Source: an uncultured Caulobacteraceae bacterium (lineage in GTDB: Bacteria; Pseudomonadota; Alphaproteobacteria; Caulobacterales; Caulobacteraceae). Taken from it: a stretch of DNA of 64,000 nucleotides. Location of the stretch: contig CAKZPF010000009.1 of assembly GCA_937138625.1 (NCBI GenBank), forward strand, positions 96,831 to 160,830, written 5' to 3'. Position numbers and translations under genes: made by a program. This document shows positions 1,159 through 51,472 of this stretch, piece by piece; positions within the stretch are counted from its first letter, which is position 1, and the number at the start of each line of letters is the position of its first letter. The notes under the pieces were generated by a model that saw nothing but the letters and a program-made list of their open reading frames with translations, did no database searches and had not been told where the DNA came from.

Positions 1159-2823
1159 TTATTCAATGATCACATAGCGGAATTCATCCAGCATCCGATG
1201 ATTGTCCCGCACCATCTGCCCCTGAGCAGTGGCAACAATATTTTTGATCTGGATCTGCACCTGCCCCGCCGCCCCGGGAATCTCAGCTGCGGTGTTGGTG
1301 ATGCCCTGCATACTGATCCCGTATTCTTGGCGCACGATGCTGTTCAAAACATCCGATGCCCCGGCCGAGCTGAGATTATCGGTAGCCTGCATATACCCCA
1401 ACGCCAGATCATCAGCACTGATCATGCCGCTGTTCAACAAATTCTGTACACGCGGGGACATAAAGACATGACGCACATCATCAAAGGGCAAATAGAGATA
1501 ATCACCCACCCGCTGAATACGTTCGCCAGTGGCCAAGCCTTCGGGGCGATTGATCAGCCGCATGGCCTGGGCGGCAGGTTGGCTCATGGCCGCCGAGCCC
1601 TGAGCGATCGGTTCTCCGGCAGTGCCCTGTAAAAACCTCAGGGCCTGATGATCGGGAACAGCATCGATCCCGGCGCGGCGCAGACCATTGGCGACCCCTC
1701 TATGCGGCAGGGCCTCAACACCGCGCCCGGTGCCCACCAGATCATCGGCGGTTCTGACCACGGTGCCTATATTGTCCTCGATCCCCGCACGAAGAATCTC
1801 TTGTCCCGAGCGCTCTCCGACCCCTGCGGTTTCATCCATCGCCTTGGTTGCCGGCGGCGTAGAGCGTCCCAGGCGCAAAGCCCGCGCCCCTTGCGCCAAG
1901 CCCACCGTGCCAATGGCAAGGCCGGCCTCCACCACATCTTGGGCCGCGCCTTGGCGTTTATACTCAGACACTATGATGTCAACGGTGCGGGTGTCTTTGG
2001 CTTGGCCCACGGCCAGCAGGAAAGCCAAAAACTTGCCCGCATCCCAACTGGTGGCCGACAGCGCCACCGCCGTGCCCAGGGTGGCCAAAGCCGCCACCCA
2101 TCCTGGCGGGCCCAAAAACAACAAACCGCCCAGGACCACAGCGCCGGCAATGATACCGGGCAGCATATTCATCAATTGGGCTTTGACCTCGGCGCCCAAC
2201 CCATCCCCCAATTTGTCAAAAGCATATGACAGGCGCGTGCCCAGCTGGGCGGCAAAGGCCGCGGCCTCGACCTCGGATCCACTGAGTTTCAATTCCTGAC
2301 CGGGGCTGAGCTGCAATTGAAAGGTGGATAGGCCGTTCAAATGGGCAATGGAGTTCGCAGCCGCCTGGATCTCTTCGTCGTTGGGGGTGCTGAGACCCGC
2401 GCCCTTCAGCTGGCGTTCCGCAAAGGCAAAAATGTCTTCGCCCGGGCGAATGGTATCGATGATGGGAGCGGGCACCGGTGGCAATGGGGCCGTTAAGATC
2501 ATCACATCCGATGGGAAGACATAATCCATCACTTGGGGGTGATTTTGGAAAATGTGGGGATTGGCCTTGATGATGTCATAAACGCCCACGCCTTCTCTCT
2601 GGGCGATTTGAAAGAGGCTGTCTCCCTGACGCGCCCACACAAGACGGGGCCCACCATCGGCAAAATAGGCCTCGAGGCCGATGGGGCTGGCGGCTGTGGC
2701 CTGCTGAATATTGGCGGCCTGGGGCGCGTCCGCAGCCCCATTAAGCGTGAACTGCCCCTTAGGCGCCATTGAACCCCCTTGAGGAACAGCGAAATTTGAG
2801 GCGGAAGGGACAATTGTATTCAT
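1159..2823 (-). CDS. Orphan LysM-domain protein with central paired hydrophobic helices and unknown C-terminal domain
   Basis: 554-aa ORF. LysM-like segment VWARQGDSLFQIAQREGVGVYDIIKANP...VFPSDVMIL; two adjacent hydrophobic stretches GIIAGAVVLGGLLFLGPPGWVAALATLGTAVALSA; no N-terminal signal peptide; C-terminal ~250 aa unrecognised. Confidence 0.6.
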   Translation of the reverse strand: MNTIVPSASNFAVPQGGSMAPKGQFTLNGAADAPQAANIQQATAASPIGLEAYFADGGPRLVWARQGDSLFQIAQREGVGVYDIIKANPHIFQNHPQVMDYVFPSDVMILTAPLPPVPAPIIDTIRPGEDIFAFAERQLKGAGLSTPNDEEIQAAANSIAHLNGLSTFQLQLSPGQELKLSGSEVEAAAFAAQLGTRLSYAFDKLGDGLGAEVKAQLMNMLPGIIAGAVVLGGLLFLGPPGWVAALATLGTAVALSATSWDAGKFLAFLLAVGQAKDTRTVDIIVSEYKRQGAAQDVVEAGLAIGTVGLAQGARALRLGRSTPPATKAMDETAGVGERSGQEILRAGIEDNIGTVVRTADDLVGTGRGVEALPHRGVANGLRRAGIDAVPDHQALRFLQGTAGEPIAQGSAAMSQPAAQAMRLINRPEGLATGERIQRVGDYLYLPFDDVRHVFMSPRVQNLLNSGMISADDLALGYMQATDNLSSAGASDVLNSIVRQEYGISMQGITNTAAEIPGAAGQVQIQIKNIVATAQGQMVRDNHRMLDEFRYVIIE

Positions 2824-9272: not shown

Positions 9273-10733
9273 TTATGCGGCGATCTGAATACCAGCGTCT
9301 TCGGGATCATCAGTGTTTGAAAATGTGGTGGAAATATATTGTACCGTGGCCAAAACCCGACCGAGTTCCGTGGCCTGGGGCGAATTGATGTAGCGCAACA
9401 GATCAATGGGTTCCGCATCAGGAGCCGCTGCGGCAGTCATAATCTGGGCCTGCTCCGCCGTTTGGGCCTGTTGCGCCGAAGCGGTCAGCATCGCATCCAA
9501 CAGATTGCGCACCGTGATGCCATCGCGAACGACTTCCCGCGCACCGGACGTCATACTGCCCACCAGCAGGCTCGCGCGCTGCAAGTCCTCGCCGACAACA
9601 CCCGCATCCGCCAACAGCATCGCGGCTTGCAACACCTCACGGGCCTGGACACCATCCTCGACAGCGGCATTGGCATGGGTGATCAATTGATTGACCGCCA
9701 CGGCGACTTTTTGCAGGTCTTCGTCTTGGGCCTGAGACTGCGCCAAAATCAAAGCGGTTTGCAAGATATCTCGGGCTTGGATGCCATCCTCGCCCACCGC
9801 GTTCAGGTGTTCAATGCCGCCATTGATCATCAGGCTGGCGCGCTGGACCTCTTCGCCCAGCAGTCCATTGGCCGCCACAGCGTTCACCGTGGTCAACAGA
9901 TCCGCAGCATCAAGACCATCCTCACGCGCGCCGTTCACCGTGCTGATCACATTGGTTAGTAAAGCAGTGGCCTGCTGCGCCTCAGCACCCAAAGCGCCCG
10001 ACGCCCCAAGGGTGCGGAGCTCTTCAAGCACTTCACCAGTTTTCAGGCCATCATCGTCTTTGGCCGCATCCCGGGTGCCTCGGACGGCTGCGGTCAGATG
10101 CGCAATGTTCTCGATTTCTTCACCTGCAACACCGGTTTGGCCCACTTCGGTGGCCAGTTCGACCACTTCGTCAGCTTTGATGTTGTTCAGTTTCAGATTG
10201 GCCAACTTAAAGCCATCGCCATCGTCACCGCCTGCGGCGGTGGCCGCCGCGGCCGCCACATTGGCCACCTTGGCAATATCCCCGAGCGTACCATCGGTTT
10301 CGGCAGCCGCCCCAAGGGCGGCCTTGCCCATAGTTTTGGCCGCGGTTTCCACGTCAATCTTAAAGCCACCGCCAGCAAAACTTTGGGCCGTGCCCACCAG
10401 CGCCTGGGCCACAGGGCCTTTCACGCCAGCCTCACCCAAAACGGTGCCCAGGACATCACCGCCCGCACGAATGGCAATATTTTTCAGTCCGGATATAGCG
10501 GCCTGCTTGCCAAGATTTAGGGCAATCCCGCCGGCCCCGAAGGTGCCCACTGTACTTACCACCGTCAGGGCAGGGCCAACCATTTCCGTTAAGTCCTTAA
10601 AGGCACCCTTGAAGTCACCTTCAAGAAGGTTACCGGTCAGCTCGACGGCTTCTTTTGCGATTTTGAAGGGGGCTGTGACAACGTCTTTGACGGCGCCGAC
10701 AATGGCCTCGCCAATTTTTTTAAACAGTCCCAT
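9273..10733 (-). CDS. Orphan Ala/Gly-rich protein with five 44-aa helical repeats
   Basis: 486-aa ORF bounded by an in-frame stop 4 codons upstream of ATG 10733 and a strong terminator. N-terminus MGLFKKIGEAIVGAVKDVV amphipathic; [DE]DG tripeptide recurs at residues 229/273/317/361/405. Confidence 0.6.
   Translation of the reverse strand: MGLFKKIGEAIVGAVKDVVTAPFKIAKEAVELTGNLLEGDFKGAFKDLTEMVGPALTVVSTVGTFGAGGIALNLGKQAAISGLKNIAIRAGGDVLGTVLGEAGVKGPVAQALVGTAQSFAGGGFKIDVETAAKTMGKAALGAAAETDGTLGDIAKVANVAAAAATAAGGDDGDGFKLANLKLNNIKADEVVELATEVGQTGVAGEEIENIAHLTAAVRGTRDAAKDDDGLKTGEVLEELRTLGASGALGAEAQQATALLTNVISTVNGAREDGLDAADLLTTVNAVAANGLLGEEVQRASLMINGGIEHLNAVGEDGIQARDILQTALILAQSQAQDEDLQKVAVAVNQLITHANAAVEDGVQAREVLQAAMLLADAGVVGEDLQRASLLVGSMTSGAREVVRDGITVRNLLDAMLTASAQQAQTAEQAQIMTAAAAPDAEPIDLLRYINSPQATELGRVLATVQYISTTFSNTDDPEDAGIQIAA
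9459..10226 (-). repeat. Coding tandem repeat region, period 132 bp (44 aa), about 5 units
   Basis: Units: DDDGLKTGEVLEELRTLGASGALGAEAQQATALL... / REDGLDAADLLTTVNAVAANGLLGEEVQRASLM... / GEDGIQARDILQTALILAQSQAQDEDLQKVAVAV... / VEDGVQAREVLQAAMLLADAGVVGEDLQRASLL... / VRDGITVRNLLDAMLTAS... Confidence 0.65.
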
Positions 10734-12339: not shown

Positions 12340-12367
12340 TTGACACCACGGCACCACCGCTTATGAT
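12340..12367 (+). promoter_or_regulatory. Sigma70-like promoter of 12415 gene
   Basis: TTGACA (12340-12345), 16-nt spacer, TATGAT (12362-12367); flanked by direct repeat CAAAATCATT at 12332 and 12370. Confidence 0.5.
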
Positions 12368-12414: not shown

Positions 12415-13071
12415 ATGAGCATCACGCCCCCCCTGCCCCAAACTGTCACTTGGCTTGCCGATACCGCCGTCCCATTTGATGGGGATTGGGTATTTGATGG
12501 GATCGCAGACCGCGTGACCCTGAACGTGGCCAAACTTGAGACCAACCCCCAGCACGCCGTCACCATTGAGCGATTAAACGCCAAGGGCCAGATCATCAGC
12601 ACCCGCCTGCAAGGTGTAGAGGTCACCAAGCATGGCGATCATGAGATCTATAATTTTGCCTATGGCAGTACGGTTCAACTCGACCTCGATCATAACCAAC
12701 AGTATGATAGCTCCTATGCACAAGACTCAGGAGATGCTGACCCCTTGGATGCCAATGGCCGCATCATTCTCAATACCAAAACCAACAGCTACACGCTCTC
12801 CACCTTGCCTGACAGTATACAGGATTACACGAGCGCATTCAGCCTGCGGTGCTGGAAATGCGCGGATGATGCCCTGCAAAACCTTGAGGATACACGCCGC
12901 TTTATCGATACCCACAGCCGCTCAGGCCAGTTGGACACCAATGGCGATGGCCAACGTGATTATTTATCCGAGCATGTGTTCCACACCTCAGAAGACCCGG
13001 ACCCAGGCACAGGCGAGCCGATCAAATATTACAAGCGTGAAGTGTACTTGGCCCCGACCGAAGTGCACTAG
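12415..13071 (+). CDS. Orphan acidic protein, dispersed member of the LDLD / Cys-pair / DxNGDG family
   Basis: 218 aa; MSITPPLPQT leader, TVQLDLDHNQQYD, CWKCADDAL, QLDTNGDGQRDYL, YYKREVYLAPTEV line up in the same order with motifs of ORFs 31137 and 32074. Confidence 0.55.
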   Translation: MSITPPLPQTVTWLADTAVPFDGDWVFDGIADRVTLNVAKLETNPQHAVTIERLNAKGQIISTRLQGVEVTKHGDHEIYNFAYGSTVQLDLDHNQQYDSSYAQDSGDADPLDANGRIILNTKTNSYTLSTLPDSIQDYTSAFSLRCWKCADDALQNLEDTRRFIDTHSRSGQLDTNGDGQRDYLSEHVFHTSEDPDPGTGEPIKYYKREVYLAPTEVH

Positions 13072-14651: not shown

Positions 14652-16022
14652 ATGCAGATCACATCAACCGCGCCCACAGGGGCCACCACCACACCAGAAC
14701 CCAAAACCTGGGAACAGGCCGTGGTGCTGTCCTTGGTGCATAACGACGAAAGCATCATCAAAGCATTTTCCGAATCTCAGCCACAGTATACCTCCCCTGA
14801 ATATGCCCTGGAAAACGCTCCACATGGTTTGAACTATGCGCAATGTGGCAATGGCAAATTCGGGCAAAGCTCAGCCGATTTGTGCAACCAAGACCCGGCA
14901 ACCCTGAAACAGGACCTAGCGGCGCGTGGCGCCCTTTTCCGCCAAGCCGCCGAGGAGGTGGGGATTGATATTTCCGACATCCCTTCCCTGGTCCGTCTGC
15001 ACAATTTCGACGGCAAGGCGGGTCTGTCTGATTATGAGCTGGGCATGGCGCTAGAGAACATGGCCATCCAATATGTATGTGGCGCAGGGTCTTCTCGCCC
15101 CCTAAGCCCTTATGACGTGATGTCCTGGATCAAAGAGATCAAAACCAATGCGGCATACGCCAAGGGGGGCTACGATCAGATTGCCTTGATGCACAAACAG
15201 GCCTCGCCACAAGATCCCATTCCAGAGATTTCGCCTCTCAGCCCCGTTGAAATCTTGAGCCTGTTTGGGCGGGATGGCGAGGTCTCTAAAACGGAATGGA
15301 TGGCCCACTGGCCCCAGTTTGATAGCAATGGCAATGGCCGACTCGATAAAACAGAAGATCTCGGCCCCCCGATCTACCACTATATTTTTGGTATGGGTGG
15401 CCCCAGTTTTTCTGAAAACATCCAGAATGCGGCCACCGAGCGCTTTGCCTTTATAGATCAGAATGGTGATGACATCATCACCGGCCAGGAGTTCACCGAG
15501 GCTGTTGCTTTGCGATCTGCCGCCCTGAAACAGCAACTGGGGGCCAGAGAGGACGCCTTTGAGGCCGCCAGCCAACAAGACGGACATTGGGTGTATGAGG
15601 CCTTGGAAAAAGACCTTCACCAACGGCGCAAGGCCTATATGAAGGAACAAAAGGATAAGATCAAAGCGCATGGTGATGAATGGGGTCACAATTCCTTTTA
15701 TGCGGATTTCTATAATGAACGCGCCTTAGAAAATGGCTGGTCCCAGCGCGGGGGGGCTTTGCATAACAATGAAGACGCCAAATTGGCCTTTGCAGACTAT
15801 ATCAAGGGTGAAGGTAAGGCCGCCTATGAGGCTCATATCGAGAAAAGGAAACAGGATGCCCTGACGTATGCCTGCAATCGGATTTACTCAGAGGACTTCA
15901 TCAATGGCAATTTCATTTTAAGGGATCAGCTGAAAGATCAGTTCTTTGCTGAAAACCCGCTCCCGCTGCACACCGGAAGTGGAATTGATGCCCGCCAAGC
16001 TGACGAGCGAGCCCTAAATTAG
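14652..16022 (+). CDS. Orphan protein with a canonical EF-hand pair
   Basis: 456 aa, no signal peptide (MQITSTAPTGATTTPEP). EF loops DSNGNGRLDKTE and DQNGDDIITGQE fit D-x-[DN]-x-[DN]-G-x-[ILV]-x-x-x-E. Segment C-NQDPATLKQD resembles CCSSENPADLRKD of ORF 32074. Confidence 0.6.
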   Translation: MQITSTAPTGATTTPEPKTWEQAVVLSLVHNDESIIKAFSESQPQYTSPEYALENAPHGLNYAQCGNGKFGQSSADLCNQDPATLKQDLAARGALFRQAAEEVGIDISDIPSLVRLHNFDGKAGLSDYELGMALENMAIQYVCGAGSSRPLSPYDVMSWIKEIKTNAAYAKGGYDQIALMHKQASPQDPIPEISPLSPVEILSLFGRDGEVSKTEWMAHWPQFDSNGNGRLDKTEDLGPPIYHYIFGMGGPSFSENIQNAATERFAFIDQNGDDIITGQEFTEAVALRSAALKQQLGAREDAFEAASQQDGHWVYEALEKDLHQRRKAYMKEQKDKIKAHGDEWGHNSFYADFYNERALENGWSQRGGALHNNEDAKLAFADYIKGEGKAAYEAHIEKRKQDALTYACNRIYSEDFINGNFILRDQLKDQFFAENPLPLHTGSGIDARQADERALN

Positions 16023-28067: not shown

Positions 28068-29876
28068 ATGAGCACACCGCGCGACCATATCCGTAATTTC
28101 TCGATCGTGGCCCATATCGATCACGGCAAGTCCACCTTGTCGGACCGACTGATCCAAGTCACGGGCACCGTCACCGAACGGGAGATGAAACAGCAGCTGC
28201 TGGACAATATGGACATCGAACGCGAGCGTGGCATCACCATCAAAGCCCAAACCGTGCGCCTGAAATACACCGCCAAGGATGGCGAGACCTATATTTTGAA
28301 CCTGATCGACACCCCTGGACACGTGGACTTTGCCTACGAAGTGTCCCGCTCGCTGGCCGCCTGTGAAGGCTCATTGCTAGTGGTGGACGCCGCCCAGGGT
28401 GTTGAAGCCCAGACGCTCGCAAACGTGTATCAAGCACTCGACCATGATCACGAGATTGTGCCGGTTCTGAACAAGATCGACCTGCCTGCCGCCGAACCCG
28501 ATCGCATCAAAGAGCAAATTGAAGAGGTCATTGGTCTGGATGCCAGTGACGCCGTGATGATTTCGGCCAAAACCGGCATCGGTATCGAAGAGGTGCTGGA
28601 GGCCATTGTCACCCGCCTGCCCCCACCGCCCGAGGGCGAGCGCGACAAGCCCCTGAAAGCCATGTTGGTGGATGCTTGGTATGATCCCTATCTGGGCGTG
28701 GTGGTGATGGTGCGCATTTTGGATGGCGAGCTGAAAAAAGGCATGCGCGTCAAAATGCTGCAAGCGGGCGCCGTTTATGGCGTTGATAAGGTCGGCGTCT
28801 TCGCGCCCAAACCCACAGATGTCGAGAGCTTGGGCCCGGGTGAGATTGGCTTTCTGACGGCTTCGATCAAAGAGGTGGCCGATGCCCTGGTGGGCGACAC
28901 CATCACCACCGAGAAAAAGGGCATTGAAACGCCCCTGCCTGGCTTCCGCCCGGCCCAGCCCGTTGTGTTTTGTGGGTTGTTCCCTGTGGATGCCGCGGAC
29001 TTTGAAGATTTGCGCTCGGCCATTGGCAAGTTGCGCCTGAACGACGCCAGTTTTTCCTATGAAATGGAAACCTCGGCGGCTTTGGGTTTTGGTTTTCGGT
29101 GTGGCTTTTTGGGGCTGTTGCACCTTGAGATCATTCAAGAGCGCCTGACCCGCGAGTTCAATCTTGAGCTGATCACCACGGCCCCGAGTGTGATTTACAA
29201 CATCACGCTGACGAACGGTGAGGTCTTGGAGTTGCACAACCCCGCCGATATGCCGGATCCCGTGCGCATCGACAACATTGCCGAGCCCTGGATCACCGCC
29301 ACCATCATGACGCCGGACGAGCATTTGGGATCGGTGATCAAGCTTTGCCAGGATCGTCGCGGCATCCAAAAAGACCTGACCTATGTGGGCACACGCGCCA
29401 TGGTGGTCTACGAGCTGCCACTGAACGAGGTGGTCTTTGATTTCTATGATCGCCTGAAGTCGATTTCACGGGGGTATGCCAGTTTTGACTATCAGATGGG
29501 TGAGTATCGCACCGAAGATCTGGTGAAAATGCAGATCCTGGTGAACTCGGAACCCGTGGACGCCTTGTCTATCTTGGTCCACCGGTCCCGCGCCGAAATG
29601 CGCGGGCGCGCCATGTGCGAAAAGCTGAAAGAGCTGATCCCCCAACACATGTTCCAAATCCCCGTGCAGGCGGCCATTGGCGGCAAAGTCATTGCGCGCG
29701 AAACCATCCGGGCCCTGCGCAAAGATGTGACGGCGAAATGCTATGGTGGGGATGCCACGCGCAAACGCAAACTGCTGGAAAAACAAAAAGAAGGCAAAAA
29801 GCGCATGCGCCAATTCGGCAAGGTGGATATCCCCCAAGAGGCCTTTATTGCAGCCTTGAAAATGGATGACGATTAA
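28068..29876 (+). CDS. lepA: Elongation factor 4
   Basis: 602 aa; [30 protein letters not shown]-terminal LepA domain. Confidence 0.95.
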
Positions 29877-29885
29877 GTCACGCTA

Positions 29886-29915
29886 TTGACATGGTTAATT
29901 TGCACTCCCTATAAG
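29886..29915 (+). promoter_or_regulatory. Sigma70-like promoter of 29947 gene
   Basis: taTTGACAt (29886-29891), 17/18-nt spacer, cTATAAg (29909-29915). GGAG SD at 29936. Confidence 0.5.
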
Positions 29916-29946
29916 GATGACAGGTTCTTAAATTTGGAGTGTATTT

Positions 29947-30900
29947 ATGAGTCATATCCCTGCCATACCCCCTGCTGCTGATACTCAGGTCAACACGGGC
30001 CCTTCCTTGCACCATATGGCGTTTTATAGCGTTTACGCCGAAGATATTGGCCCCGACGGAAAGGGCTTGGGCACCGTAGACGATAAGCTGGATGTATTGG
30101 CCGTGATCAAACAGCAAACGGGTGATCAAATCCAGGTTGAAGGCATTTTGGTCTCGGGCGCTGACTTTGATGGCGTCGAGGTCCCTGAAAGTGCCTTTCA
30201 TTCCATTGAAACCGAGGTGTCGCGCACACTGACCATTGAAGGCCCAGACGGTTCAGAAATGGTGATGGGGCATGAAATCACTTTTCCACATGTGCGATTT
30301 GATACAGACGCCAATGGCAAATTGGACACGCCGATCATGCACGCCAGTGGCGAGCGGGAAACGACCTCGGTCGTTATGGACGCCATGGAGAATTATAGCT
30401 TTCTCAAAGGATTTTCCGACGAGTTTTCTAGCAAATACAGCTATGACCCCATTCGGGAACGACCCTTTCTGATGCCCGAAGGCTACCAAGAGGGTATTGA
30501 GTCGTATTTGAAAACGTTTGTCATTCCAGGCACCGAGCTGGCCATGGTAGAGATGGAAAACTCGGAAGTCGCCGAGGATCAAACCTACGCTACGTATGCC
30601 CGGAATTATTACCACATTGATATGAACGATGATGGCCAGGAAGATGCGGTGATGCAGGCCGTCACCGCCAATTCTGCCGAGCCCACCAGGGTGCATTATC
30701 CTGTCGTGCTCAGCCCCGTTATTGATGAAGCCTATTTTGTGTTTCAAACGGATGGCAGCCCTGAAGGCTTTGAAAACACTTTGGAGCAACTGCTAGATTT
30801 CATTGCCCCTGATGATGGCACGGACCCTGATGCCGTCGAGCCCTTGGAACCTGCCCCGGGCCCTGACAGCCTGCCCAACTCATCAGACCCTGAAAGTTAA
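29947..30900 (+). CDS. Orphan acidic protein, divergent member of the paralog family (Cys pair lost)
   Basis: 317 aa. FYSVYAEDIGPDGKGLGTVDDKLDVL, HVRFDTDANGKLDTP, GFSDEFSSK (aligns to GLSDCCSSR) and HIDMNDDGQEDAVMQAV occur in the same order as in ORFs 31137 and 32074. Confidence 0.55.
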   Translation: MSHIPAIPPAADTQVNTGPSLHHMAFYSVYAEDIGPDGKGLGTVDDKLDVLAVIKQQTGDQIQVEGILVSGADFDGVEVPESAFHSIETEVSRTLTIEGPDGSEMVMGHEITFPHVRFDTDANGKLDTPIMHASGERETTSVVMDAMENYSFLKGFSDEFSSKYSYDPIRERPFLMPEGYQEGIESYLKTFVIPGTELAMVEMENSEVAEDQTYATYARNYYHIDMNDDGQEDAVMQAVTANSAEPTRVHYPVVLSPVIDEAYFVFQTDGSPEGFENTLEQLLDFIAPDDGTDPDAVEPLEPAPGPDSLPNSSDPES

Positions 30901-30941
30901 GTGTGTATCGGGCTCCCCCTACACGTACATATATCTGCTGA

Positions 30942-30985
30942 GCGCCCTCTAAAATTAACGCACAAAGCTTATCTTTAGAGGGCGT
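30942..30985 (+). terminator. Long-loop stem-loop after 29947 gene
   Basis: CGCCCTCTAAA ... TTTAGAGGGCG 11-bp stem, 20-nt loop, followed by TATT; weak T-tract. Confidence 0.35.
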
Positions 30986-31088
30986 ATTGGATCCGGCTTG
31001 GTGAACCGCCCACCCCCAGAACGGAGGAACAGCCAGACGGCTGATCCGCAATTTGCAAGCGGCGATTCATAACAATTCCGATCACGTA

Positions 31089-31117
31089 TTGACATAATTA
31101 CGCCACAAATATAGTAT
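31089..31117 (+). promoter_or_regulatory. Sigma70-like promoter of 31137 gene
   Basis: taTTGACAt (31089-31094), 17-nt spacer, TAGTAT (31112-31117). Same TATTGACAT -35 context as the 29886 promoter. Confidence 0.5.
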
Positions 31118-31136
31118 GGGGTTAACATAACCTACA

Positions 31137-32042
31137 ATGCGTTATCAGAAAGCCGCCATATTCATGACCTTATCTCCCGCCCCTACCACCACATTACCAG
31201 ATCCCCAACGGACTCTATCCCAGACCTTTACGGTCTTTGCTGCTGATGCCAATGGCCATATTGACGATGTGCCGGATCGGTTGACCATCATCACCCCCTC
31301 GGAAGGTGAGACCAAGCCCAGCATCAGTTTAGCCTATGGCGAAGAAACCATGGATGAAAACGGTGTCAGCGTCCGTTATGGCCAAGACACCCCCATTGCC
31401 AAAGACCGCATTCACGCGGAACACAACCCGCTGTCTGGCACAACCCTGTATTTGCTAGAAGATATGCCTCTGGATCTAGATCGCAGTGGCACAATTGACC
31501 CTGCGCATTTCCAGGCCAAAACTGCAAATTTCACTGGCAATGTGATGATCGGCACGGTACCGGACAGCGAACATGGTGCGGTCAATATGCTGATGTCATA
31601 CTCCGATGGCTTGTCAGACTGTTGCTCAAGCCGGCGGAATGCCGAACTGCAAGAGCTCTTGGACAAAATGGCGTCCGAGGATATTGCCATGCCTCGCGCC
31701 TTTGAAATGGCTCATCAACTGCAGGGACAAGACGCCTTCACCGATGCCAGTGGTGCCATGAGCTATATGATTGATCGTGGTGTGATGTCCGAAGACCAAT
31801 CGGCAAGCCTGCAGATCGTTCCCGGTCAACAATTGGATATGCAGGGGCGTGTGGCCTCGGAAATTCACTCGATCATGGGTATGGACTGGAATGGAGATGG
31901 CGTCCCAGACGAAATCCAAGACGTCAACATCATGCGTACAGATCAAGGCCTGACCAGCAAAACCAATACTCCGTTTATCGAAAAGAACGAATGGTACGTC
32001 ACGCTGAACCCGACCCAAGTGCGGCCGACCTCTCGTTTATAA
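31137..32042 (+). CDS. Orphan acidic protein, paralog family member
   Basis: 301 aa (alt. start ATG 31164 giving MTLSPAPTTTLPDPQ). Motifs FTVFAADANGHIDDVPDRLTI, LDLDRSGTIDP, DGLSDCCSS, DWNGDGVPDE, EWYVTLNPTQV. Confidence 0.6.
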   Translation: MRYQKAAIFMTLSPAPTTTLPDPQRTLSQTFTVFAADANGHIDDVPDRLTIITPSEGETKPSISLAYGEETMDENGVSVRYGQDTPIAKDRIHAEHNPLSGTTLYLLEDMPLDLDRSGTIDPAHFQAKTANFTGNVMIGTVPDSEHGAVNMLMSYSDGLSDCCSSRRNAELQELLDKMASEDIAMPRAFEMAHQLQGQDAFTDASGAMSYMIDRGVMSEDQSASLQIVPGQQLDMQGRVASEIHSIMGMDWNGDGVPDEIQDVNIMRTDQGLTSKTNTPFIEKNEWYVTLNPTQVRPTSRL

Positions 32043-32073
32043 TGTCCCCCTCACAAGATTTGGATACCGCCTT

Positions 32074-32799
32074 ATGAAAACGCCAGACATCACCACGCCG
32101 TCGCCCCCCTCCGGAGGATCGGAAAAATTTGAATTTATGGTCTATGCCGCCGATGCCCAAGGCCAGATTGATGACATTCCGGATCGGGTGACCGTCTATG
32201 CCGCCGAGGATTTCAACCCTCGCAACAAACCCAGCGTACAACTGGAGCATGGCCGTGGTGATGGCACCTATGACAAACCGGTCAGCTACAAGGCAGATCA
32301 AATCCATTACATACCCCAGTTGAAGGGATTTGTTGTCCAAGACCTGCACTTGGATCTGGATCGCAGCGGCACGCCAGATCCAGATCTGGCCGATGCCTAT
32401 GGCATTCCCCCATTTCTGTCCGGGTCCGTGGCTTTGGTCACCGGCAATCACAACAACAAACCTGTCTATTTCCTGGCCGGTTTGGCCGATGGTCTGACCG
32501 ATTGCTGCTCAAGCGAAAACCCAGCGGACCTTCGCAAAGATGCTCAAAAGAGCCGCGCCTATGTGGCCGACAACTACAAAGGCAACTTACAGAATGTCAC
32601 ACAAGTGCAGGGCACGCTGCTGACCGAGCCCACCTTCAACAACATTTTCCATAATTTTGCCGATGTGAACGGCGATGGGCGACGTGACATGCTGCAAAAC
32701 ACCATTGTTGACCCTCAGGCCCCACCCCAAACGGCCAAGGATAATTTCTGGACGATTGTGGTCAGTCCCACAGACAAAGGCCCGATTTCTCAGCTCTGA
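32074..32799 (+). CDS. Orphan acidic protein, paralog family member
   Basis: 241 aa. FMVYAADAQGQIDDIPDRVTV, LDLDRSGTPDP, DGLTDCCSS, DVNGDGRRDM, FWTIVVSPTD. DNA-level identity with 31137 at TGGATCTrGATCGCAGyGGCAC and TGyTGCTCAAGC. Confidence 0.6.
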   Translation: MKTPDITTPSPPSGGSEKFEFMVYAADAQGQIDDIPDRVTVYAAEDFNPRNKPSVQLEHGRGDGTYDKPVSYKADQIHYIPQLKGFVVQDLHLDLDRSGTPDPDLADAYGIPPFLSGSVALVTGNHNNKPVYFLAGLADGLTDCCSSENPADLRKDAQKSRAYVADNYKGNLQNVTQVQGTLLTEPTFNNIFHNFADVNGDGRRDMLQNTIVDPQAPPQTAKDNFWTIVVSPTDKGPISQL

Positions 32800-32802
32800 C
32801 AA

Positions 32803-33744
32803 CTACCCCAGCGGATGGGCGGCCGCATAGGCGCGCATCAGTTGGGCGGTTTCCACATCCGTATAGCGCTGAGTGGTGCTGAGCGAGCTGTGCCCCAACA
32901 GGGCTTGTAAGCTGCGCAGATCCGCACCACCCGCCAAAATATGGGTGGCAAAGCTGTGCCGCAAAGCGTGCGGCGTGGCGTGATCTGGCAAACCCAATTG
33001 GCCCCGAAGCGCCTGTAGGCGCAATTGCACCTGACGCGGCCCCAATGGCCCACCCCGGGCGGCCCGAAACAGGGGACCATCAGCTGTGATCTCATACGGC
33101 ACCTGATCGAGATACGCCCCCACGGCCTCACGCACGATCGGCAGCACCGGCACCACGCGGGTTTTTCGGCCCTTTCCCGTCACGCGCATAACCTCAGGCA
33201 AGGGCCAATCGCCGCCCGTCAGGGCTAGAACCTCGGCAATTCTCAGCCCCATGGCATACAAAACCGTGATCACGGCGGCGTCCCGCGCCGCTTGCCAATC
33301 GGCCTCGTCGGGCTGCATCACCGCTTGGGCGTCTTCAGGCGACAAGGGTTTGGGCAAAGGCCGTTTGGTTTTTGGCCCCCGGATCAGGCTGAGGCAGGCA
33401 AAGCGCACCTCGTATCGGCTTTCCAAAAAGCGCAAAAACGACCGTATGGCTGACAGCGCCAAAGACACCGAGCGATTGCTCAGGGTCTGTCGCCCCTCTT
33501 GCCGGCGCCAGGCCAGGAAGGCGCGCACATCCGCCGCCGACAACTGGGACAGGCGTCCAAGGTCCGGGATCTCGCCCCAATGATCGGTCAGAAAGCGCGC
33601 CAGTTTGCGACTTTCCAGCTGATACATCTCGACGGTGCGTTGGGCCAAGCGACGCTCGGCCAACAGGCTTTGGCCCCAGGCCATCTGCAGGGCGGCAAAG
33701 CTGTGATCCGGCGTCGCGATACAAGACATGCCCCAGTATCCCAC
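32803..33744 (-). CDS. xerC: Tyrosine recombinase XerC/XerD family
   Basis: 313 aa; ARDAAVITVLYAMGLRIAEV, HALRHSFATHIL, LGHSSLSTTQRYT (R..HxxR..Y catalytic set). Start uncertain. Confidence 0.75.
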   Translation of the reverse strand: MGYWGMSCIATPDHSFAALQMAWGQSLLAERRLAQRTVEMYQLESRKLARFLTDHWGEIPDLGRLSQLSAADVRAFLAWRRQEGRQTLSNRSVSLALSAIRSFLRFLESRYEVRFACLSLIRGPKTKRPLPKPLSPEDAQAVMQPDEADWQAARDAAVITVLYAMGLRIAEVLALTGGDWPLPEVMRVTGKGRKTRVVPVLPIVREAVGAYLDQVPYEITADGPLFRAARGGPLGPRQVQLRLQALRGQLGLPDHATPHALRHSFATHILAGGADLRSLQALLGHSSLSTTQRYTDVETAQLMRAYAAAHPLG

Positions 33745-33797
33745 CAGAGGTTTAAGAGCCTCTTGACGGCGTCGCGCCCCCAGGCCACCAATCGTCT

Positions 33798-35780
33798 ATG
33801 ACCACCCCCGCCCCCATTGCCACCGTCTTGCTGGCGCGCCCTGTGCCCCAGGCCTATGATTATCTGGCAGGTGACGCAGACCTTGCGGTGGGCCAGGTGG
33901 TGCGCGCCCCCTTTGGCAACAGTCAGGCCCTGGGGGTGGTCACCGGTTTTCGTGACAGGCCAGAAAACCCAGATGTGCGCCTAAAAGCCATCACCGAAGC
34001 CCTTACGACCCCGGCGGTACCGAACAGAACCCTCGACTTTGTGCGCTGGTTGGCCTGGTACAACCAACACCCCGAAGGGGCCGTTCTGAAAATGGCGCTG
34101 CGCGGGGCCGAGCCCGCCAAACGCCCGCGCAAGACCCCCATCCCAGAGCCCAATCCAGACCACCCTGGCCGCACGTTGAACCCCTCTCAACACAGCGCCG
34201 CCGCAAGCTTGGGCCAGGCCCTGGATGATCACATGTTTTCCACCTGGCTGCTCGATGGCGTGACCGGATCGGGGAAAACCGAGACCTATTTTGCCGCCAT
34301 TGCCCACCTGCTGCGCCGGGACCCCACGGCCCAGGTTTTGGTGCTGACGCCCGAGATCGCTTTGTCTGGCGATGTAGGCGCGCGCTTTGCCGATCGCTTT
34401 GCCGCCGAGCCCCCCCTCTGGCACGCGGATATCGCCGAAGGCCGCCGCAAACAGATCTGGCAAGCCGTGGCCCGCAACCAGGCGCGATGCGTGATCGGCG
34501 CACGTTCGGCCTTGTTTTTGCCTTTCCAGAACCTGCGCCTGATCATCGTCGACGAGGAACATGACAGTTCCTACAAACAAGAAGAAGGGCTGACCTATCA
34601 CGCCCGAGACATGGCGGTGGCCCGCGCCCATATTGAACAGGCGGTGTGCGTCTTGGCCTCGGCCACGCCATCCCTTGAAAGTCAATGGAACGCCGCCGCG
34701 AGCAAATACGGGCATTTGCGCCTGGGGGAACGGGCCGGAGGAGCCCAAAAGCCAGACTTACAGTTGGTCGATATGCGCGCCACCCCGCCCGACAATGGCA
34801 CGTTTCTGGCCCCGCCCCTGCGCCAAGCCATTGCCGAGACTCTGGCCAAAGGTGAGCAAAGCCTGCTGTTTCTGAACCGGCGTGGCTATGCGCCTCTGAC
34901 CCTGTGTCGCACATGTGGTCACCGCCTGACGGCGCCTGGCGGTGAAAATTACCTCGTCGAGCATAAACACACCGGCCGCCTGGTCTGTCACCTGACCGGG
35001 TTCTCCATGCGCAAGCCCAAGGCTTGTCCCGAGTGCGGCGAGGAGACTTTGGTCTCCGTCGGGCCTGGTGTCGAGCGCATCGCCGAGGAAGCCCAAGAGA
35101 CCTTTCCCGATGCCCGGGTCGAAATCCTGTCCTCTGACCTCAGCGACACGCCTAAGGTGGTGGCCGCGCGACTAAAGGCTATGGAGGCTGGTGAGATTGA
35201 TATTCTGGTCGCCACCCAAATGGCCGCCAAGGGCCACAACTTCCCGAACCTAACCCTTGTGGGTGTGGTGGATGCAGATCTCGGGCTTCGGGGTGCGGAC
35301 CTGCGGGCCGCCGAGCGCACCTTCCAGGTGGTCAACCAGGTGGCGGGGCGCGCCGGACGAGCGGAAAAACCTGGGCGCGCTCTGATCCAAACCTATGACC
35401 CTGATAACACCACCATGCAGACCGTCATTCGCCAAGACCGAGAGGCCTTTGTGCGTGCCGAGCTTAACGAGCGCCAAGCCCTGGGCCTGCCCCCCTTTGG
35501 GCGTTTGGTGGCGGTAGTGGTGTCGGGCAAAACGCTGGGCCAAGTGGAAGCGGCCGCCGAGACCTTGGCCCGCACGGCACCCCAGGCCGCAGGTTTTGAC
35601 CTTTATGGCCCCGCCGAGCCCGTCCATGGCCGCATCCGCGGGGTTTGGCGGCGGCGGCTGTTGCTGAGGGCCGATCTTGGCAAAGATGTGCAAGGGTATC
35701 TGAAAGCTTGGCGCCAAAGTTATCGCCTGCCGCGTTCGGTAACGGTGCAGTTTGATGTGGACCCCCAAAGCTTTTTCTAG
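33798..35780 (+). CDS. priA: Primosomal protein N' (replication restart helicase)
   Basis: 660 aa; Walker A GVTGSGKTE, DEEHD, Cys-rich zinc region CRTCGH...CHLTG...CPECG, ATQMAAKGHNFP. Confidence 0.9.
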   Translation: MTTPAPIATVLLARPVPQAYDYLAGDADLAVGQVVRAPFGNSQALGVVTGFRDRPENPDVRLKAITEALTTPAVPNRTLDFVRWLAWYNQHPEGAVLKMALRGAEPAKRPRKTPIPEPNPDHPGRTLNPSQHSAAASLGQALDDHMFSTWLLDGVTGSGKTETYFAAIAHLLRRDPTAQVLVLTPEIALSGDVGARFADRFAAEPPLWHADIAEGRRKQIWQAVARNQARCVIGARSALFLPFQNLRLIIVDEEHDSSYKQEEGLTYHARDMAVARAHIEQAVCVLASATPSLESQWNAAASKYGHLRLGERAGGAQKPDLQLVDMRATPPDNGTFLAPPLRQAIAETLAKGEQSLLFLNRRGYAPLTLCRTCGHRLTAPGGENYLVEHKHTGRLVCHLTGFSMRKPKACPECGEETLVSVGPGVERIAEEAQETFPDARVEILSSDLSDTPKVVAARLKAMEAGEIDILVATQMAAKGHNFPNLTLVGVVDADLGLRGADLRAAERTFQVVNQVAGRAGRAEKPGRALIQTYDPDNTTMQTVIRQDREAFVRAELNERQALGLPPFGRLVAVVVSGKTLGQVEAAAETLARTAPQAAGFDLYGPAEPVHGRIRGVWRRRLLLRADLGKDVQGYLKAWRQSYRLPRSVTVQFDVDPQSFF

Positions 35781-41448: not shown

Positions 41449-42764
41449 GAGCCGCTGCGCGCTTTGACCACGGCTGACGCCGGCGCGAGACTATAGCCCT
41501 TCAGACCCAAACCGTCGGCCCAGCGGGCGATTTGATCCACCGTGATGGGATAGGCAAAGCCCACACCCATGGCATGCCCCTGCTGCAGAGCCAAGGCCTC
41601 AAGGGCCAGCAGTTGCTGGTCAATGGCCTCGGCCGAGGGCCGCTCATCGACCAAGCGGTCCGCAACCCCGCCACGCACACTGGTGCGAGCCTGGGCGGTG
41701 GCAAATGTTGAACGTGTCGTCTGGCCATCGCCCACAAAGGCCACACCACGCTGTTTCAGAAGCTGAAATATAGGGGCCAAGGCGGCCTCGGTAGACATAA
41801 ATTTGCCCCCCAGATAATTGATCACGCCGAAATAGCCGGTGGCGCGGCTCATCAGCCAGTCCAGACGCTGTTGGTTTTCCTCAAGCTGCGCATCCGCCAA
41901 CAAGGTGTAAGGCCCAGGGTCGTTTTCTGGATAATCAAAGGGCTCCATGGGCAGTTCCAAAATGACCTCATGGCCATTGGCCCGCGCCAGATCAATCCAG
42001 CCCTGTAAGCCTTCGGCATAGGGCACGAAGGACAAGGTGACCTCCGGCGGCAAGCGTTCAATGGCCGCTTTGGTTGCCGCCTTGTTCAGGCCCAGGCCCC
42101 CAACGATTACCGACAGCATCGGCTTGCCCGTCTTTTTGTATGGCCGTGCATAGGCATCCGCCGGCCACTCGCCTTTGGGGCCAATGCTGGGCAGGGGTCC
42201 TGCTGGGCCCGGCTGGGTCAGACCGGCAATGGGGGCTGCCGGTAAGGGCTCGGAGGGTTTTTGCGAAATGGTCTCAACGCGCGGCTTCGCGCCCGTGACC
42301 GTAATGGTGGCCACGCCTGGTTTGTTGGGGCCACCCACCTGAGAAAAGCCAGGAATGGCCTTGGGGCCGCCGTCTCGTTGTGCCTGCTCAGATTCAAGGG
42401 GAATATCGTCCAGGGGTGCCAGGCTTGCGATGTTGGGGCGGCCACCAGACAGCAAATCGAGCTCGGTGATGGCCTGTTGCTGTGGGTTGGCTTGCGCCCC
42501 CATGCGCGGATCGACAGCTTTGACCTCCGGTGCCAATTTCAGCATCAATTTAGGCTTACCCGCCGAGGGGTCCCCTAGGCCCTCGATCAGGCCATACCCC
42601 ACGCCCAAGGTGGCGATCAACGCCAACGCCCCCAAAGCATGCGGGTTTTTCAGATGCCGCACCCAGCCCCATGACAGGCGTGGCAAACCCGGCAAGCCAA
42701 AGCGACGGGAAGAGCCACCCCCGTTTTTGTTAAATCTCTGCAAGGCGATCTTGGCGCTCGACAT
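41445..42764 (-). CDS. Divergent polysaccharide deacetylase family protein (YibQ-like)
   Basis: 439 aa; N-terminal TM anchor, Pro-rich linker. C-terminal LSVIVGGLGLN...LSFVPYA...HEVILELPMEPFDYPENDPGPYTLL is typical of the YibQ/DUF610 domain. Confidence 0.75.
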   Translation of the reverse strand: MSSAKIALQRFNKNGGGSSRRFGLPGLPRLSWGWVRHLKNPHALGALALIATLGVGYGLIEGLGDPSAGKPKLMLKLAPEVKAVDPRMGAQANPQQQAITELDLLSGGRPNIASLAPLDDIPLESEQAQRDGGPKAIPGFSQVGGPNKPGVATITVTGAKPRVETISQKPSEPLPAAPIAGLTQPGPAGPLPSIGPKGEWPADAYARPYKKTGKPMLSVIVGGLGLNKAATKAAIERLPPEVTLSFVPYAEGLQGWIDLARANGHEVILELPMEPFDYPENDPGPYTLLADAQLEENQQRLDWLMSRATGYFGVINYLGGKFMSTEAALAPIFQLLKQRGVAFVGDGQTTRSTFATAQARTSVRGGVADRLVDERPSAEAIDQQLLALEALALQQGHAMGVGFAYPITVDQIARWADGLGLKGYSLAPASAVVKARSGS

Positions 42765-42933
42765 TCCGAATCACATGTCCCTCTCTGCTGGGTCCGTTAT
42801 AGGGGAAAATCTTAACGCAGTGGTAAACACAATCCTAATGCAGCAAAAAATCCGCCCACCCCGCGGATGGTGGATTGACACGCCTTTGGGCAAAAGATAC
42901 ACGAACGGCTCGAGTAACCGTGAGTGTAACGTC

Positions 42934-44250
42934 ATGATTTTATTATATAATCAGCCTGCTGATCAATTTTACACCTCAGCGCAGGCCCCAGATGCCAATA
43001 CTTTCAGTGCGCTGATGCCAATAGACCCGAACGCAGGCCGGCCAGATCCTATTTTTTATCGCACACGGGGGGGCGAGACCCTTGGGGATGTGGCCCAATG
43101 GTATGGCACAACCGTGGGGCAACTGCTGAGCTGGAATGGCCTTCTGGCCGTCCATTACCCCAAAGCCCACGCTGACACGGTCCTGAACGCCGGCCATGAG
43201 CTGGTTGTATCGGAATCATATGTGGAAGAAGAAACACTGATGCCTCGCGACAGTTACTTGCTGGAGGTGGAAAACAATAGCGCACCCGGACAAGCCGAGC
43301 GCCTGCAGGCGTTAGATGCCCGCGGGGCTGCCGAAGACCGCATTGCCGCCTATAACCAAGCCTGGCGCGCAAATCAGCCGGTGTTTCAGCAAAACAGAGG
43401 GCCGCACATCCCCAAAGACAGTCCGCTGATGGAGCAGCTGCGCTACGATACCGAAGTGCGCCAAGCCTATGAGGTCCTGTCTTTGGTCAAACCCGGCGAA
43501 TTTCTGGACAGTGACCTGATCGAGAAACGGTGGAGGCAAATCTATGGTGGTGCCATGCCCTATGGGGTTTATGAAGCCGAAGGCATCATCAAAGCTCACG
43601 AACGCCGAAAACATCGCGATGCCTCCATCGGCGCTATGGGAGCCGTCTATTATTACGCTGCCGATCCCCACAATCCTGTCAGTGTGTTGAACTTGATCAC
43701 AGCGGGCGGCGTGGGTCTGAAAATGCCAGGGGGGCACAAACAGATCACTGAGCACAAAACAGGGCGCGGGACTGTTCAGGTTCATTTTTCACGCCTGCCC
43801 GGCGTCGAGGCCACGTTTCGAGTCCGATATGTTTTTGTGGACATGAATGGACAGAAGCACGCCCTAACCGAGCGTGAAGTTTTGCGCCATATCAACGAGA
43901 GCTATCGGCCGAGCTCAGTGCACCGTGCCGAAGGGCATATGGCCACGACCCAACTGCATGCCGATATGCCGCTTGGCATGTTGGATGGCCTCAGCCCCGC
44001 CATGGTGCGACAACTGAATGCTCGGGGCTATCGCACCATTCGAGATTTGTTTTCCTTGTCGCCAGATATGGCCCTTGAAAATTTGCGCCTGAGTGCGGAA
44101 CACAATCATGGCTATACGCATCCCAATACTTTGCATATTGAAGCGGTGGCTGAACATTATGGCCTACGCTTTGGGATGAGCACCGCCGACTTTCAAGCTT
44201 GGAACCAGCGGGCACAGAACACTTACAATAGTGCCAATGGCCGTCCCTAA
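42934..44250 (+). CDS. Orphan LysM-domain protein with unknown C-terminal region
   Basis: The track ORF (42355..) overlaps yibQ antisense, so it is trimmed to the first ATG after it with a sensible N-terminus (MILLYNQPADQFYTSAQAPD). LysM: YRTRGGETLGDVAQWYGTTVGQLLSWNGL...LNAGHELVV. Possible HhH near the C-terminus (LSPAMVRQLNARGYRTIRDL). Start uncertain. Confidence 0.5.
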   Translation: MILLYNQPADQFYTSAQAPDANTFSALMPIDPNAGRPDPIFYRTRGGETLGDVAQWYGTTVGQLLSWNGLLAVHYPKAHADTVLNAGHELVVSESYVEEETLMPRDSYLLEVENNSAPGQAERLQALDARGAAEDRIAAYNQAWRANQPVFQQNRGPHIPKDSPLMEQLRYDTEVRQAYEVLSLVKPGEFLDSDLIEKRWRQIYGGAMPYGVYEAEGIIKAHERRKHRDASIGAMGAVYYYAADPHNPVSVLNLITAGGVGLKMPGGHKQITEHKTGRGTVQVHFSRLPGVEATFRVRYVFVDMNGQKHALTEREVLRHINESYRPSSVHRAEGHMATTQLHADMPLGMLDGLSPAMVRQLNARGYRTIRDLFSLSPDMALENLRLSAEHNHGYTHPNTLHIEAVAEHYGLRFGMSTADFQAWNQRAQNTYNSANGRP

Positions 44251-47846: not shown

Positions 47847-50286
<2,440 letters not shown>

Positions 50287-50347: not shown

Positions 50348-51472
50348 ATGTCAATACACGGTCATTGCCCCCCTGCCCTTGCGCCCCTGCAGACAGCCTT
50401 TTCAGAGCTTTTTGATGCCGACGAGGAATTGGGCGCTGCCGTGGCCGTGACCCTGGACGGGGATCTGATTGCCCACCTGTGGGCCGGTTATGCCGACAAA
50501 CGCAAAACCCAAAATTTTGCCCAAGACACTTTGGTGCCCGTATACTCCACTGGCAAAGCCCTTGTCAGCTTGGTGGTGGCCCAGGTCGTGGATCAGTTTG
50601 ACATCACCTATGACACGCCGGTGGGCCAGATTTGGCCGGAATTAAACCCTCATGGTGTCGGGGCCATCACCCTGGCGCAGCTGATGTCTCACCAATCCGG
50701 TCTGTGTGGCTTTACCTCACCCATGGAAGCCAGCGACTGGTTTGAATGGGAGACCATCACCAAACGCCTTGAGGCCACCACACCCTTGTGGACACCGGGC
50801 ACCGCCCATGGCTACGAGCCCATTACCTTTGGCTTTTTGGCTGGTGAGATCGTCCGCCGCATCAGCAGCCAAACCATACCCCAATGGGTGGCCACCCACT
50901 GGCGCGAGGCTTTGGGCCTGGACTTGTGGTTCGGCGGCCTTGGCGGGGAGACCCACCGCATCGCTGAATTGGCACGTCCAACCCGCTTGCCGGATTTGTC
51001 GAATCTAACCCCCGAACGCCAAGCGGCCTTTTTGGAACGCTGGTCGGCGCCAGCGGGTCGGGGCAGCGCCACCTGGCGCGAGGCCAATTTGCCCGCCGCC
51101 AATCTGCACGCCACGGCCCCCGCCCTTGCCGAAATGATGAGCATCCTGACCACGGGCGGCGAACGTCATGGCGAGCGGGTGATCAGCCCGTCAACCCTTG
51201 GGGCCCTTTGCCAAGAGCACACCCAGGGGCCAGACAAGGTCTTGCCCTTTGCCCTGAGCTGGGCGGCGGGTCTGTTGCGCAATGGGGATCTGGGCATATA
51301 TGGCCCCAACCCGGACGCCGTCGGACATTCCGGTTGGGGCGGCAGCTGCGCCTTTGCGGATCCAGAGCGCGGCCTTGGCTTTGCCTATGTGATGAACAAA
51401 CAGTCCCACCATTTGCTGGGCGACCCACGGCCGCTCGCTTTGATCCGTGCCCTTTATGACAGCCTGGATTAA
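50348..51472 (+). CDS. Serine hydrolase, beta-lactamase/esterase family
   Basis: 374 aa; S-x-x-K motif VYSTGKAL, LMSHQSGL, later HSGWGG. Confidence 0.75.
   Translation: MSIHGHCPPALAPLQTAFSELFDADEELGAAVAVTLDGDLIAHLWAGYADKRKTQNFAQDTLVPVYSTGKALVSLVVAQVVDQFDITYDTPVGQIWPELNPHGVGAITLAQLMSHQSGLCGFTSPMEASDWFEWETITKRLEATTPLWTPGTAHGYEPITFGFLAGEIVRRISSQTIPQWVATHWREALGLDLWFGGLGGETHRIAELARPTRLPDLSNLTPERQAAFLERWSAPAGRGSATWREANLPAANLHATAPALAEMMSILTTGGERHGERVISPSTLGALCQEHTQGPDKVLPFALSWAAGLLRNGDLGIYGPNPDAVGHSGWGGSCAFADPERGLGFAYVMNKQSHHLLGDPRPLALIRALYDSLD

Follow-up and report, generated by a model that had tools for sequence, protein, structure and literature searches.

A lineage-restricted family of predicted acidic proteins with calcium-blade-type loops between lepA and xerC of an uncultured Caulobacteraceae bacterium

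Three genes, designated A, B and C, lie in tandem between lepA and xerC in a 64-kb window (the whole stretch analysed: 64,000 nucleotides of contig CAKZPF010000009.1, positions 96,831 to 160,830, from assembly GCA_937138625.1 of an uncultured Caulobacteraceae bacterium), and a fourth relative, gene D, is located elsewhere in the same window. The closest described systems are the FG-GAP/VCBS propellers, which have six to eight related tandem blades of approximately 60 residues each. The calcium blade carries the loop Dx[DN]xDG followed by an acidic side chain two residues on (Rigden et al. 2011; PMC3123361). Rhizobium RapA1/A2, RapB and RapD form the Ra/CHDL family of small Ca2+-binding, cadherin-like lectins found in one genus (PMC9298526, PMC5061743). 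RapD, a protein of 277 aa, is genus-restricted, binds Ca2+ and is multimeric; it leaves the cell through the type I system PrsDE, and its N-terminal beta domain, which carries a VCBS-repeat annotation, is followed by an unknown C-terminal region (PMC9298526). By current models of RTX-type substrates, export through PrsDE uses an uncleaved C-terminal signal (PMC9298526). Compared with these systems the locus described here encodes an orphan family within the known Dx[DN]xDG calcium-loop protein class, and not a categorically new system.

Gene A (29947..30900, 317 aa), gene B (31137..32042, 301 aa counted from M1) and gene C (32074..32799, 241 aa) were all located on the + strand with lepA on the left and xerC on the right, as the initial annotation, made from the letters of the window, had placed them. 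Gene D (12415..13071, + strand, 218 aa, pI 4.6, without a Pfam match) lies between the lepA-xerC block and the start of the window, with a chemoreceptor gene and a phosphoglucosamine-mutase-like gene as neighbours. By sequence comparison the four were assigned as real coding members of a lineage-restricted, fast-evolving multigene family with two subtypes, A-type and B/C-type. B and C aligned significantly over their full length (BLASTP E=1e-20, 28% identity), with every motif of the previously listed ordered set in register. The two DNA-level identities that had been reported were recovered as well: TGGATCTrGATCGCAGyGGCAC at 31471 and 32351 (2 matches vs 0 expected by chance) and TGyTGCTCAAGC at 31620 and 32503. 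On these comparisons B and C are judged to be clear paralogs.

The relationship of gene A to this pair was examined by profile. Pairwise BLASTP of A against B or C was not significant, and hhalign of A against a two-sequence B+C profile gave a non-significant probability of 2%. Gene A was recognised as belonging to an A-type subfamily because it has a clear homologue in another lineage (locus L003; BLASTP E=2e-21). When profiles enriched with homologues from that lineage were used, which are shallow at two sequences (A-type) and five sequences (B/C-type), hhalign gave a probability of 86% (E=5.5e-6) over 144 colinear columns. The alignment contained loop 2, an S-D...S-S motif, loop 3 and the C-terminal [WYF]-x-V-x-h-x-P strand, and it also covered the P-x-LMP/Y region, which is a non-loop element. 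A local hmmsearch with the B/C profile matched A in three colinear pieces (E=4e-4). A is likely, with moderate support and short of proof, to be a distant homologue of the B/C type. Of the three tandem paralogs originally proposed, then, the B/C pair stands and the picture of three equal copies gives way to two subtypes; the description of A as far more diverged with the same motif order agrees with a colinear profile match in the face of non-significant pairwise scores. The same local search matched gene D colinearly (E=3.7e-6), while hhalign against the single D sequence was weak. The motifs of D occur in the order FDGDWVFDGIADRVT, DLDHNQQYD, LPDSIQDYTSA..CWKC, DTNGDGQRD and VYLAPTEVH. The initial annotation had counted four members in the window; D, outside the coordinates which it described, is the fourth.

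Family members begin with a short Pro/Thr-rich N-terminus. The N-terminal half is rich in beta structure and is followed by loop 1, which is acidic and atypical, then by two loops of the form Dx[DN]x[DNS]Gxx[DE] and by a conserved C-terminal strand, [WYF]-x-V-x-h-x-P-T. The conserved motifs are best read as integrin/FG-GAP calcium-blade-type loops. Loop 1 of gene B is AADANGHIDDVPDR. Loop 2 (DTDANGKLD in A, residue 119, 30301..30327; DLDRSGTID in B, 31473..31499; DLDRSGTPD in C, 32353..32379; all + strand) is a relaxed variant close to the calcium-blade loop, with S or N at position 5. Loop 3 (DMNDDGQED in A, residue 225, 30619..30645; DWNGDGVPD in B, 31884..31910; DVNGDGRRD in C, 32662..32688; all + strand) is the canonical Dx[DN]xDGxx[DE] in A, B, C and D, in the B/C-type protein P0005 and in the A-type protein of L003, and as in the propellers it stands between hydrophobic strand-like runs. 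Position 9 of the loops is always D or E, and position 12 of every loop is H, L, I or P and never acidic. Loops 2 and 3 probably bind Ca2+.

A blade profile prepared from bona fide FG-GAP proteins aligned with unit 1 of the B/C profile over 48 columns, a whole blade (82%), and with loop 3 (91%); the B/C profile itself retrieved FG-GAP/VCBS proteins. The Pfam model FG-GAP_3 (PF13517) gave sub-threshold matches in five of the eight members, the best at 26.4 bits (P0005) against a cutoff of 26.9 bits, with gene C at 22.8 bits, while A and B gave no match to the FG-GAP/VCBS models (PF13517, PF01839) at E<=1. In contrast to the propellers, the family proteins have three loops and no detectable repeated blades, and at 218-317 aa they are too short for a propeller. 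They also stand alone and lack a signal, unlike large surface proteins with many repeats. As folds, a 4-bladed mini-propeller and a half-propeller were considered and dropped, since internal repeats were not detected.

EF-hand proteins share with the family their acidity and their DxDxDG-type loops, and the calsymin of Rhizobium etli is a secreted bacterial example. They differ at position 12, which is Glu or Asp in EF-hands and neither in any loop of the family, and in that position 9 here is always acidic; Pfam EF-hand E-values were 0.16-0.76. Profile matches to myosin light chain, sorcin and caltractin in the PDB, extending from loop 2 to the S-D motif, were non-significant (E>=0.38). The resemblance to dockerin type I (PF00404) was limited to one segment, loop 3 of gene C, at 17.2 bits against a cutoff of 22.9 bits, and the same loop scored better as FG-GAP_3; unlike dockerins, the family lacks a duplicated pair of 22-residue segments and any cohesin or cellulosome context. 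An EF-hand or dockerin loop type was ruled out by the acidic position 9, the non-acidic position 12 and the sub-threshold Pfam scores. The DxNGDG loop had been described from the outset as a Ca2+ site of dockerin or EF-hand type: a Ca2+-type loop is plausible, and the type is instead that of the FG-GAP/VCBS calcium blade.

The likeness to the Rap proteins is one of description, an analogy and not a homology, in that both are small, narrowly restricted families, with Ca2+ binding described for the Rap proteins and predicted for the present ones. The family has no cadherin-like or VCBS model match at threshold, and the Rap proteins are secreted by PrsDE whereas no type I secretion genes occur in the window.

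No curated family was reached at threshold in Pfam, NCBIfam, PADLOC or PHROGs, and in Pfam and NCBIfam no model other than FG-GAP_3, EF-hand and dockerin appeared at E<=1. Profile searches of the PDB with three alignments returned nothing significant. The view that A, B and C belong to no recognised family was therefore borne out, as HMM (hidden Markov model), PDB and fold searches placed them in no characterised one.

The predicted proteins are strongly acidic, as had been noted, with isoelectric points (pI) of 4.05, 4.45 and 4.68 and net charges of -47, -23 and -12 for A, B and C, respectively. The reported absence of a transmembrane segment also held (maximum Kyte-Doolittle 19-residue mean <=1.13 in all three). 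Gene A ends in an acidic, Pro-rich tail, and the B/C-type C-termini are conserved as PT-x4-[SI]-x-[LST]. Read from M1, gene B opens with a weak signal-like start, MRYQKAAIFMTL. Reading from M1 adds nine residues (MRYQKAAIF) which are found in no other member, and neither M1 nor M10 is preceded by a good Shine-Dalgarno sequence. The alignment of M10 (31164) with the starts of the other members suggests that it, and not M1 (31137), is the true start.

The Cys-Cys pair is encoded at 31620..31625 in B and at 32503..32508 in C. A vicinal pair occurs in B, C, the C of the sister strain and P0005, and P0015, D and the A-type proteins lack it (A is without Cys), so that the pair is not invariant as once supposed. 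Throughout the family a protein contains no Cys at all or a close-set pair, as CC or CxxC; D carries CxxC where B and C carry CC.

The distribution of B/C-type members is extremely narrow, with two lineages known among 1.84 billion representative proteins. An exhaustive hmmsearch of these with the B+C profile gave P0005 (E=3.4e-15) and P0015 (E=4.9e-4) as the sole further members matched over their full length, both from a single metagenome run, SRR24075712; the remaining matches were multi-repeat FG-GAP/VCBS proteins aligned at the loop 3 segment only. Word-indexed searches of 5.8 billion protein clusters with A, B and the five-member profile returned the queries and P0015 only. There was no match in genome-collection scans that used the B/C profile and XerC, in metagenome and viral scans with both subtype profiles, or in a tblastn search of plasmids and phages with A. 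The order lepA-A-B-C-xerC-priA is the same in a sister strain (GCA_030431275.1, locus L001). In SRR24075712 the slot reads lepA - P0005 - A-type gene ... P0015 - broken A-type gene - xerC - priA - atpH, the A-type and B/C-type genes are 10-16 nt apart, and a promoter-like ATTGACAT site is again found 3' of lepA (L003). By this synteny the two types travel together in the lepA-xerC slot. The broken gene (locus L002, 962..1463) adjoins xerC and has an internal deletion and a frameshift, by which 30-odd N-terminal codons, up to loop 1, are joined out of frame to the P-x-LMP...C-terminal part; it could be a pseudogene or an assembly error.

Between the two lineages identity was 88% for LepA, 69% for PriA and 58% for XerC, as against 25-33% for the family proteins, which points to fast evolution relative to the flanks. 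The block was also lower in GC than its surroundings, as had been judged by eye: 50-53% against 57-64% in the flanks, and 41-45% against 54-59% in the other lineage. GC at third codon positions (GC3) was 0.57-0.61 in the block and 0.67-0.74 in neighbouring genes, with GC1 > GC2 as expected of real coding frames.

Compared with the sister strain, the window showed a background of 0-2 mismatches per 100 bp, and protein A was identical. A patch in gene B just after the C-C motif (31600..31700) had 10 mismatches and a 3-nt indel. In the sister strain a deeply divergent allele takes the place of the 3' half of gene C (32480..32799, + strand); the divergence starts right after the DCCSS-coding stretch and amounts to 41-44 mismatches per 100 bp. 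In this variable part the proportion of synonymous differences (pS) was 0.785, which is saturated, that of nonsynonymous differences (pN) was 0.349, and amino-acid identity was 48%. The ratio of nonsynonymous to synonymous change (omega) was 0.31-0.36 for B and for the N-terminal part of C. With omega near 0.3 the genes are under purifying selection, and that they are real is further borne out by ORFs which are intact in two strains and two lineages. Saturation at synonymous sites and the sharpness of the boundary indicate that recombination exchanged the 3' half of C for an old, still-constrained allele, and that recent mutation in place did not produce it; a diversity-generating retroelement or in-place hypermutation was ruled out for C on the same two grounds. 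Patches in xerC (33000..33300 and 33700..33800) had 9-15 mismatches per 100 bp, and the synonymous divergence (dS) of xerC was 0.18, compared with 0.03-0.04 for lepA and priA, which suggests recombination tracts continuous with, or near, the replaced half of C. Hypervariability of the whole family was ruled out by the identity of A in the sister strain and by an ENA variant of D (P0019) that differs from the window copy at two residues. Overall, the slot has stayed fixed in the chromosome while genes of the array were duplicated, decayed or had alleles replaced.

The explanation that we favour, at a probability of about 0.35, is that the family consists of Ca2+-stabilised extracytoplasmic binding or matrix proteins whose export does not depend on a Sec signal; Ca2+ binding, export and the binding or matrix role are all inferred. 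Under this explanation the proteins would fold or be stabilised on binding Ca2+ at the loops, would leave the cell by a route independent of a signal peptide, and would serve outside the cytoplasm as small soluble binders or matrix components; specificity would be determined by the stretch past the C-C motif, which would be the variable part. The model is the rhizobial Rap/CHDL lectins, small genus-restricted Ca2+-binding substrates of type I secretion, and the analogy with them hints weakly at an extracytoplasmic location. Weak hints of the same kind come from the strong acidity and from the pattern of either no Cys or close-set Cys.

Several results weigh against this explanation. The members have no recognisable secretion signal of any kind, in keeping with the absence of a Sec signal noted before, none has a GGxGxD repeat of RTX type, and no secretion-system genes occur within the window. 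The surface or secreted character expected earlier from the pattern of divergence is accordingly divided: the divergence is indeed fast, and the localisation is still an inference, there being no signal and, in the window, no secretion system. Calcium blades also occur in intracellular proteins (PMC3123361). Loop 1 is non-canonical and the Gly of loop 3 is lost in the sister-strain allele of C and in P0015, so that Ca2+ binding is not assured at every loop. No member reaches the Pfam gathering threshold for FG-GAP, and hhalign among four segments of the B/C profile found, as internal repeats, only a 10-column match of loop 2 with loop 3 (35%). AlphaFold2 gave a mean predicted local distance difference test score (pLDDT) of 46.7 for gene C from a five-sequence alignment, with only residues 18-136 moderately confident and beta, and 34.0 for gene A from a single sequence; the C-terminal half was predicted as partly helical in these low-confidence models, which as Foldseek queries gave no match at E<=0.001 in the PDB or BFVD. 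The divergent half of C may also be one import tract reaching into xerC, free of diversifying selection; a single tract from a more distant relative is possible because dS is raised in xerC, and the comparison with the sister strain involves two genomes, in which an import tract and diversifying selection are not separable.

If the proteins are exported Ca2+-dependent binders, they would place the calcium-blade motif in a new and compact structural setting and would represent new surface or matrix factors, specific to their lineage, in an alphaproteobacterial group that has been poorly sampled. A bolder version, to which we give little credence, makes the A-type and B/C-type proteins partner components of an undescribed lineage-specific extracellular recognition system that would be Ca2+-dependent, exported by way of the shared Pro/Thr-rich N-terminus, which is found on further acidic proteins of the window that lack a signal, and equipped with a swappable C-terminal module after the C-C motif; if true, strain specificity would reside in that module and could serve, for instance, to discriminate kin, hosts or phages. 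In any case the locus is a clean natural example of fast gene turnover in a fixed slot between near-identical strains and a well-delimited orphan family, without bearing on a long-standing open question.

Other explanations differ as to what the block contains and where its products would act. The A-type and B/C-type genes could be unrelated orphan families with convergent Asp-rich calcium loops, in which case the block would be two paralogs and a neighbour. The non-significant pairwise BLASTP, the first hhalign probability of only 2% and the dependence of the relationship on profiles of five and two sequences fit such an arrangement, as does the known convergent origin of the Dx[DN]xDG motif (PMC3123361). 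It is nevertheless unlikely in our judgement, as the 144-column colinear alignment includes non-loop elements, the B/C HMM matches A in colinear pieces and both types share the same slot in both lineages. We would give a similarly low standing to small acidic decoy or immunity-type proteins of the cytoplasm, whether orphan immunity proteins of polymorphic toxins or nucleic-acid mimics. Such proteins are typically tandem, fast-diverging, narrowly distributed, signal-less acidic paralogs, and the family resembles them in lacking a signal peptide and a transmembrane segment, in its extreme acidity (net charge -47 for A), in a tandem array with turnover that includes the broken L002 copy, in narrow distribution, in allelic divergence that is abrupt past a conserved motif and, in the other lineage, in a spacing of 10-16 nt between gene types that recalls two-gene cassettes; that calcium blades can be intracellular (PMC3123361) points the same way. 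The surroundings differ from those of polymorphic-toxin and defence systems: lepA, xerC, priA and the atp operon are the neighbours, no toxin, nuclease or defence gene is nearby, PADLOC gave no match, and in Pfam and NCBIfam no family, not even one of immunity proteins, reached threshold. Moreover, a decoy has no obvious use for conserved Dx[DN]xDG loops, and with both subtypes acidic there is no pair of basic toxin and acidic antidote.

The block could instead be cargo left by an old mobile element that had integrated beside a tyrosine recombinase gene, or an insertion hotspot, of no physiological role to the host. Its GC is below that of the flanks in both lineages, it adjoins a gene of the phage-integrase family and recombination tracts surround C and xerC. 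The recombinase, however, keeps xerC-priA-atpH synteny in both lineages and looks like a housekeeping XerC; the borders of the block showed no further mobile-element genes, no repeats and no tRNA, an Rfam scan of the whole window gave 0 matches, and phage, plasmid and viral collections held no homologues. The same site is occupied across lineages that differ by 12% in LepA, and the genes are under purifying selection, so that mobile cargo seems improbable. That the open reading frames (ORFs) are spurious or decaying and non-functional is the least credible proposal and can be very nearly set aside: the lack of a database family, the weak ribosome-binding sites of B and C, the low GC3 and one broken copy in L002 speak for it, against long intact ORFs in two lineages that keep their motifs at 25-33% identity, omega near 0.3, pN below a saturated pS and conserved promoter-like sites.

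The flanks of the array are conserved, with lepA at 28068..29876 (+ strand) on the left and the xerC-type tyrosine recombinase gene at 32803..33744 (- strand), followed by priA, atpH and atpA, on the right. Gene C starts 31 nt past gene B and is convergent with xerC across a 3-nt gap. The near-consensus promoters proposed for the first two transcription units were found with the motif TATTGACAT at 29884 and 31087; the motif has three matches in the window against 0.23 expected. The promoter-like site of gene A (29886..29915, + strand, TTGACA-18-TATAAG within the TATTGACAT motif) begins 10 nt past the lepA stop codon and was missed by the promoter scanner, the final T of the second hexamer being absent. 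That of the B-C unit (31089..31117, + strand, TTGACA-17-TAGTAT) scores 10/12 as a sigma-70-type promoter. Gene D has a promoter-like site at 12340..12367 (TTGACA-16-TATGAT). A hairpin 3' of gene A (30942..30986, + strand) has a 12-bp stem, GCGCCCUCUAAA ... UUUAGAGGGCGU, with a minimum free energy of -32.7 kcal/mol and a z-score of -2.6 by RNA folding; it is terminator-like, without a T run, and divides the A unit from the B-C unit. Gene A has a GGAG ribosome-binding site 7 nt upstream of its start codon, and the sites of B and C are weak. The gene content of the window is housekeeping and alphaproteobacterial in appearance, including EipA, UPF0114, pheST, the atp operon, ffh and obg.

Some features elsewhere in the window were recorded. 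The third TATTGACAT (50348..50356, - strand) lies approximately 60 nt upstream of an HpcH/HpaI aldolase-like gene (49480..50286, - strand) and overlaps the start of a beta-lactamase-family ORF (50348..51472). The ORF at 14652..16022 (+ strand) encodes an acidic orphan of 456 aa (pI 4.9, GC 0.53, no Pfam match at E<=1e-5) with two canonical EF-hand loops, DSNGNGRLDKTE and DQNGDDIITGQE, and its sister-strain copy differs at few residues. Its Pro/Thr-rich N-terminus, MQITSTAPTGATTTPEPKTW, resembles those of A, B, C and D, and the common feature may serve in export or as a leader, or may be a compositional habit. A second acidic orphan (9273..10733, - strand, 486 aa, pI 4.4) has no Cys and no Pfam match, is Ala/Gly-rich, and contains repeated units of approximately 35 residues with the patterns EDG[IV]QAR[DE][IV]LQ.A..LA and GE[ED][LV]QRASLL; its exact sequence was absent from the protein collection. 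Two ORFs with a LysM domain, 1159..2823 (- strand) and 42355..44250 (+ strand), have no evident Sec signal peptide: the former has a hydrophobic stretch inside the protein, and the start codon of the latter is doubtful because it would give a long, unlikely N-terminal extension.

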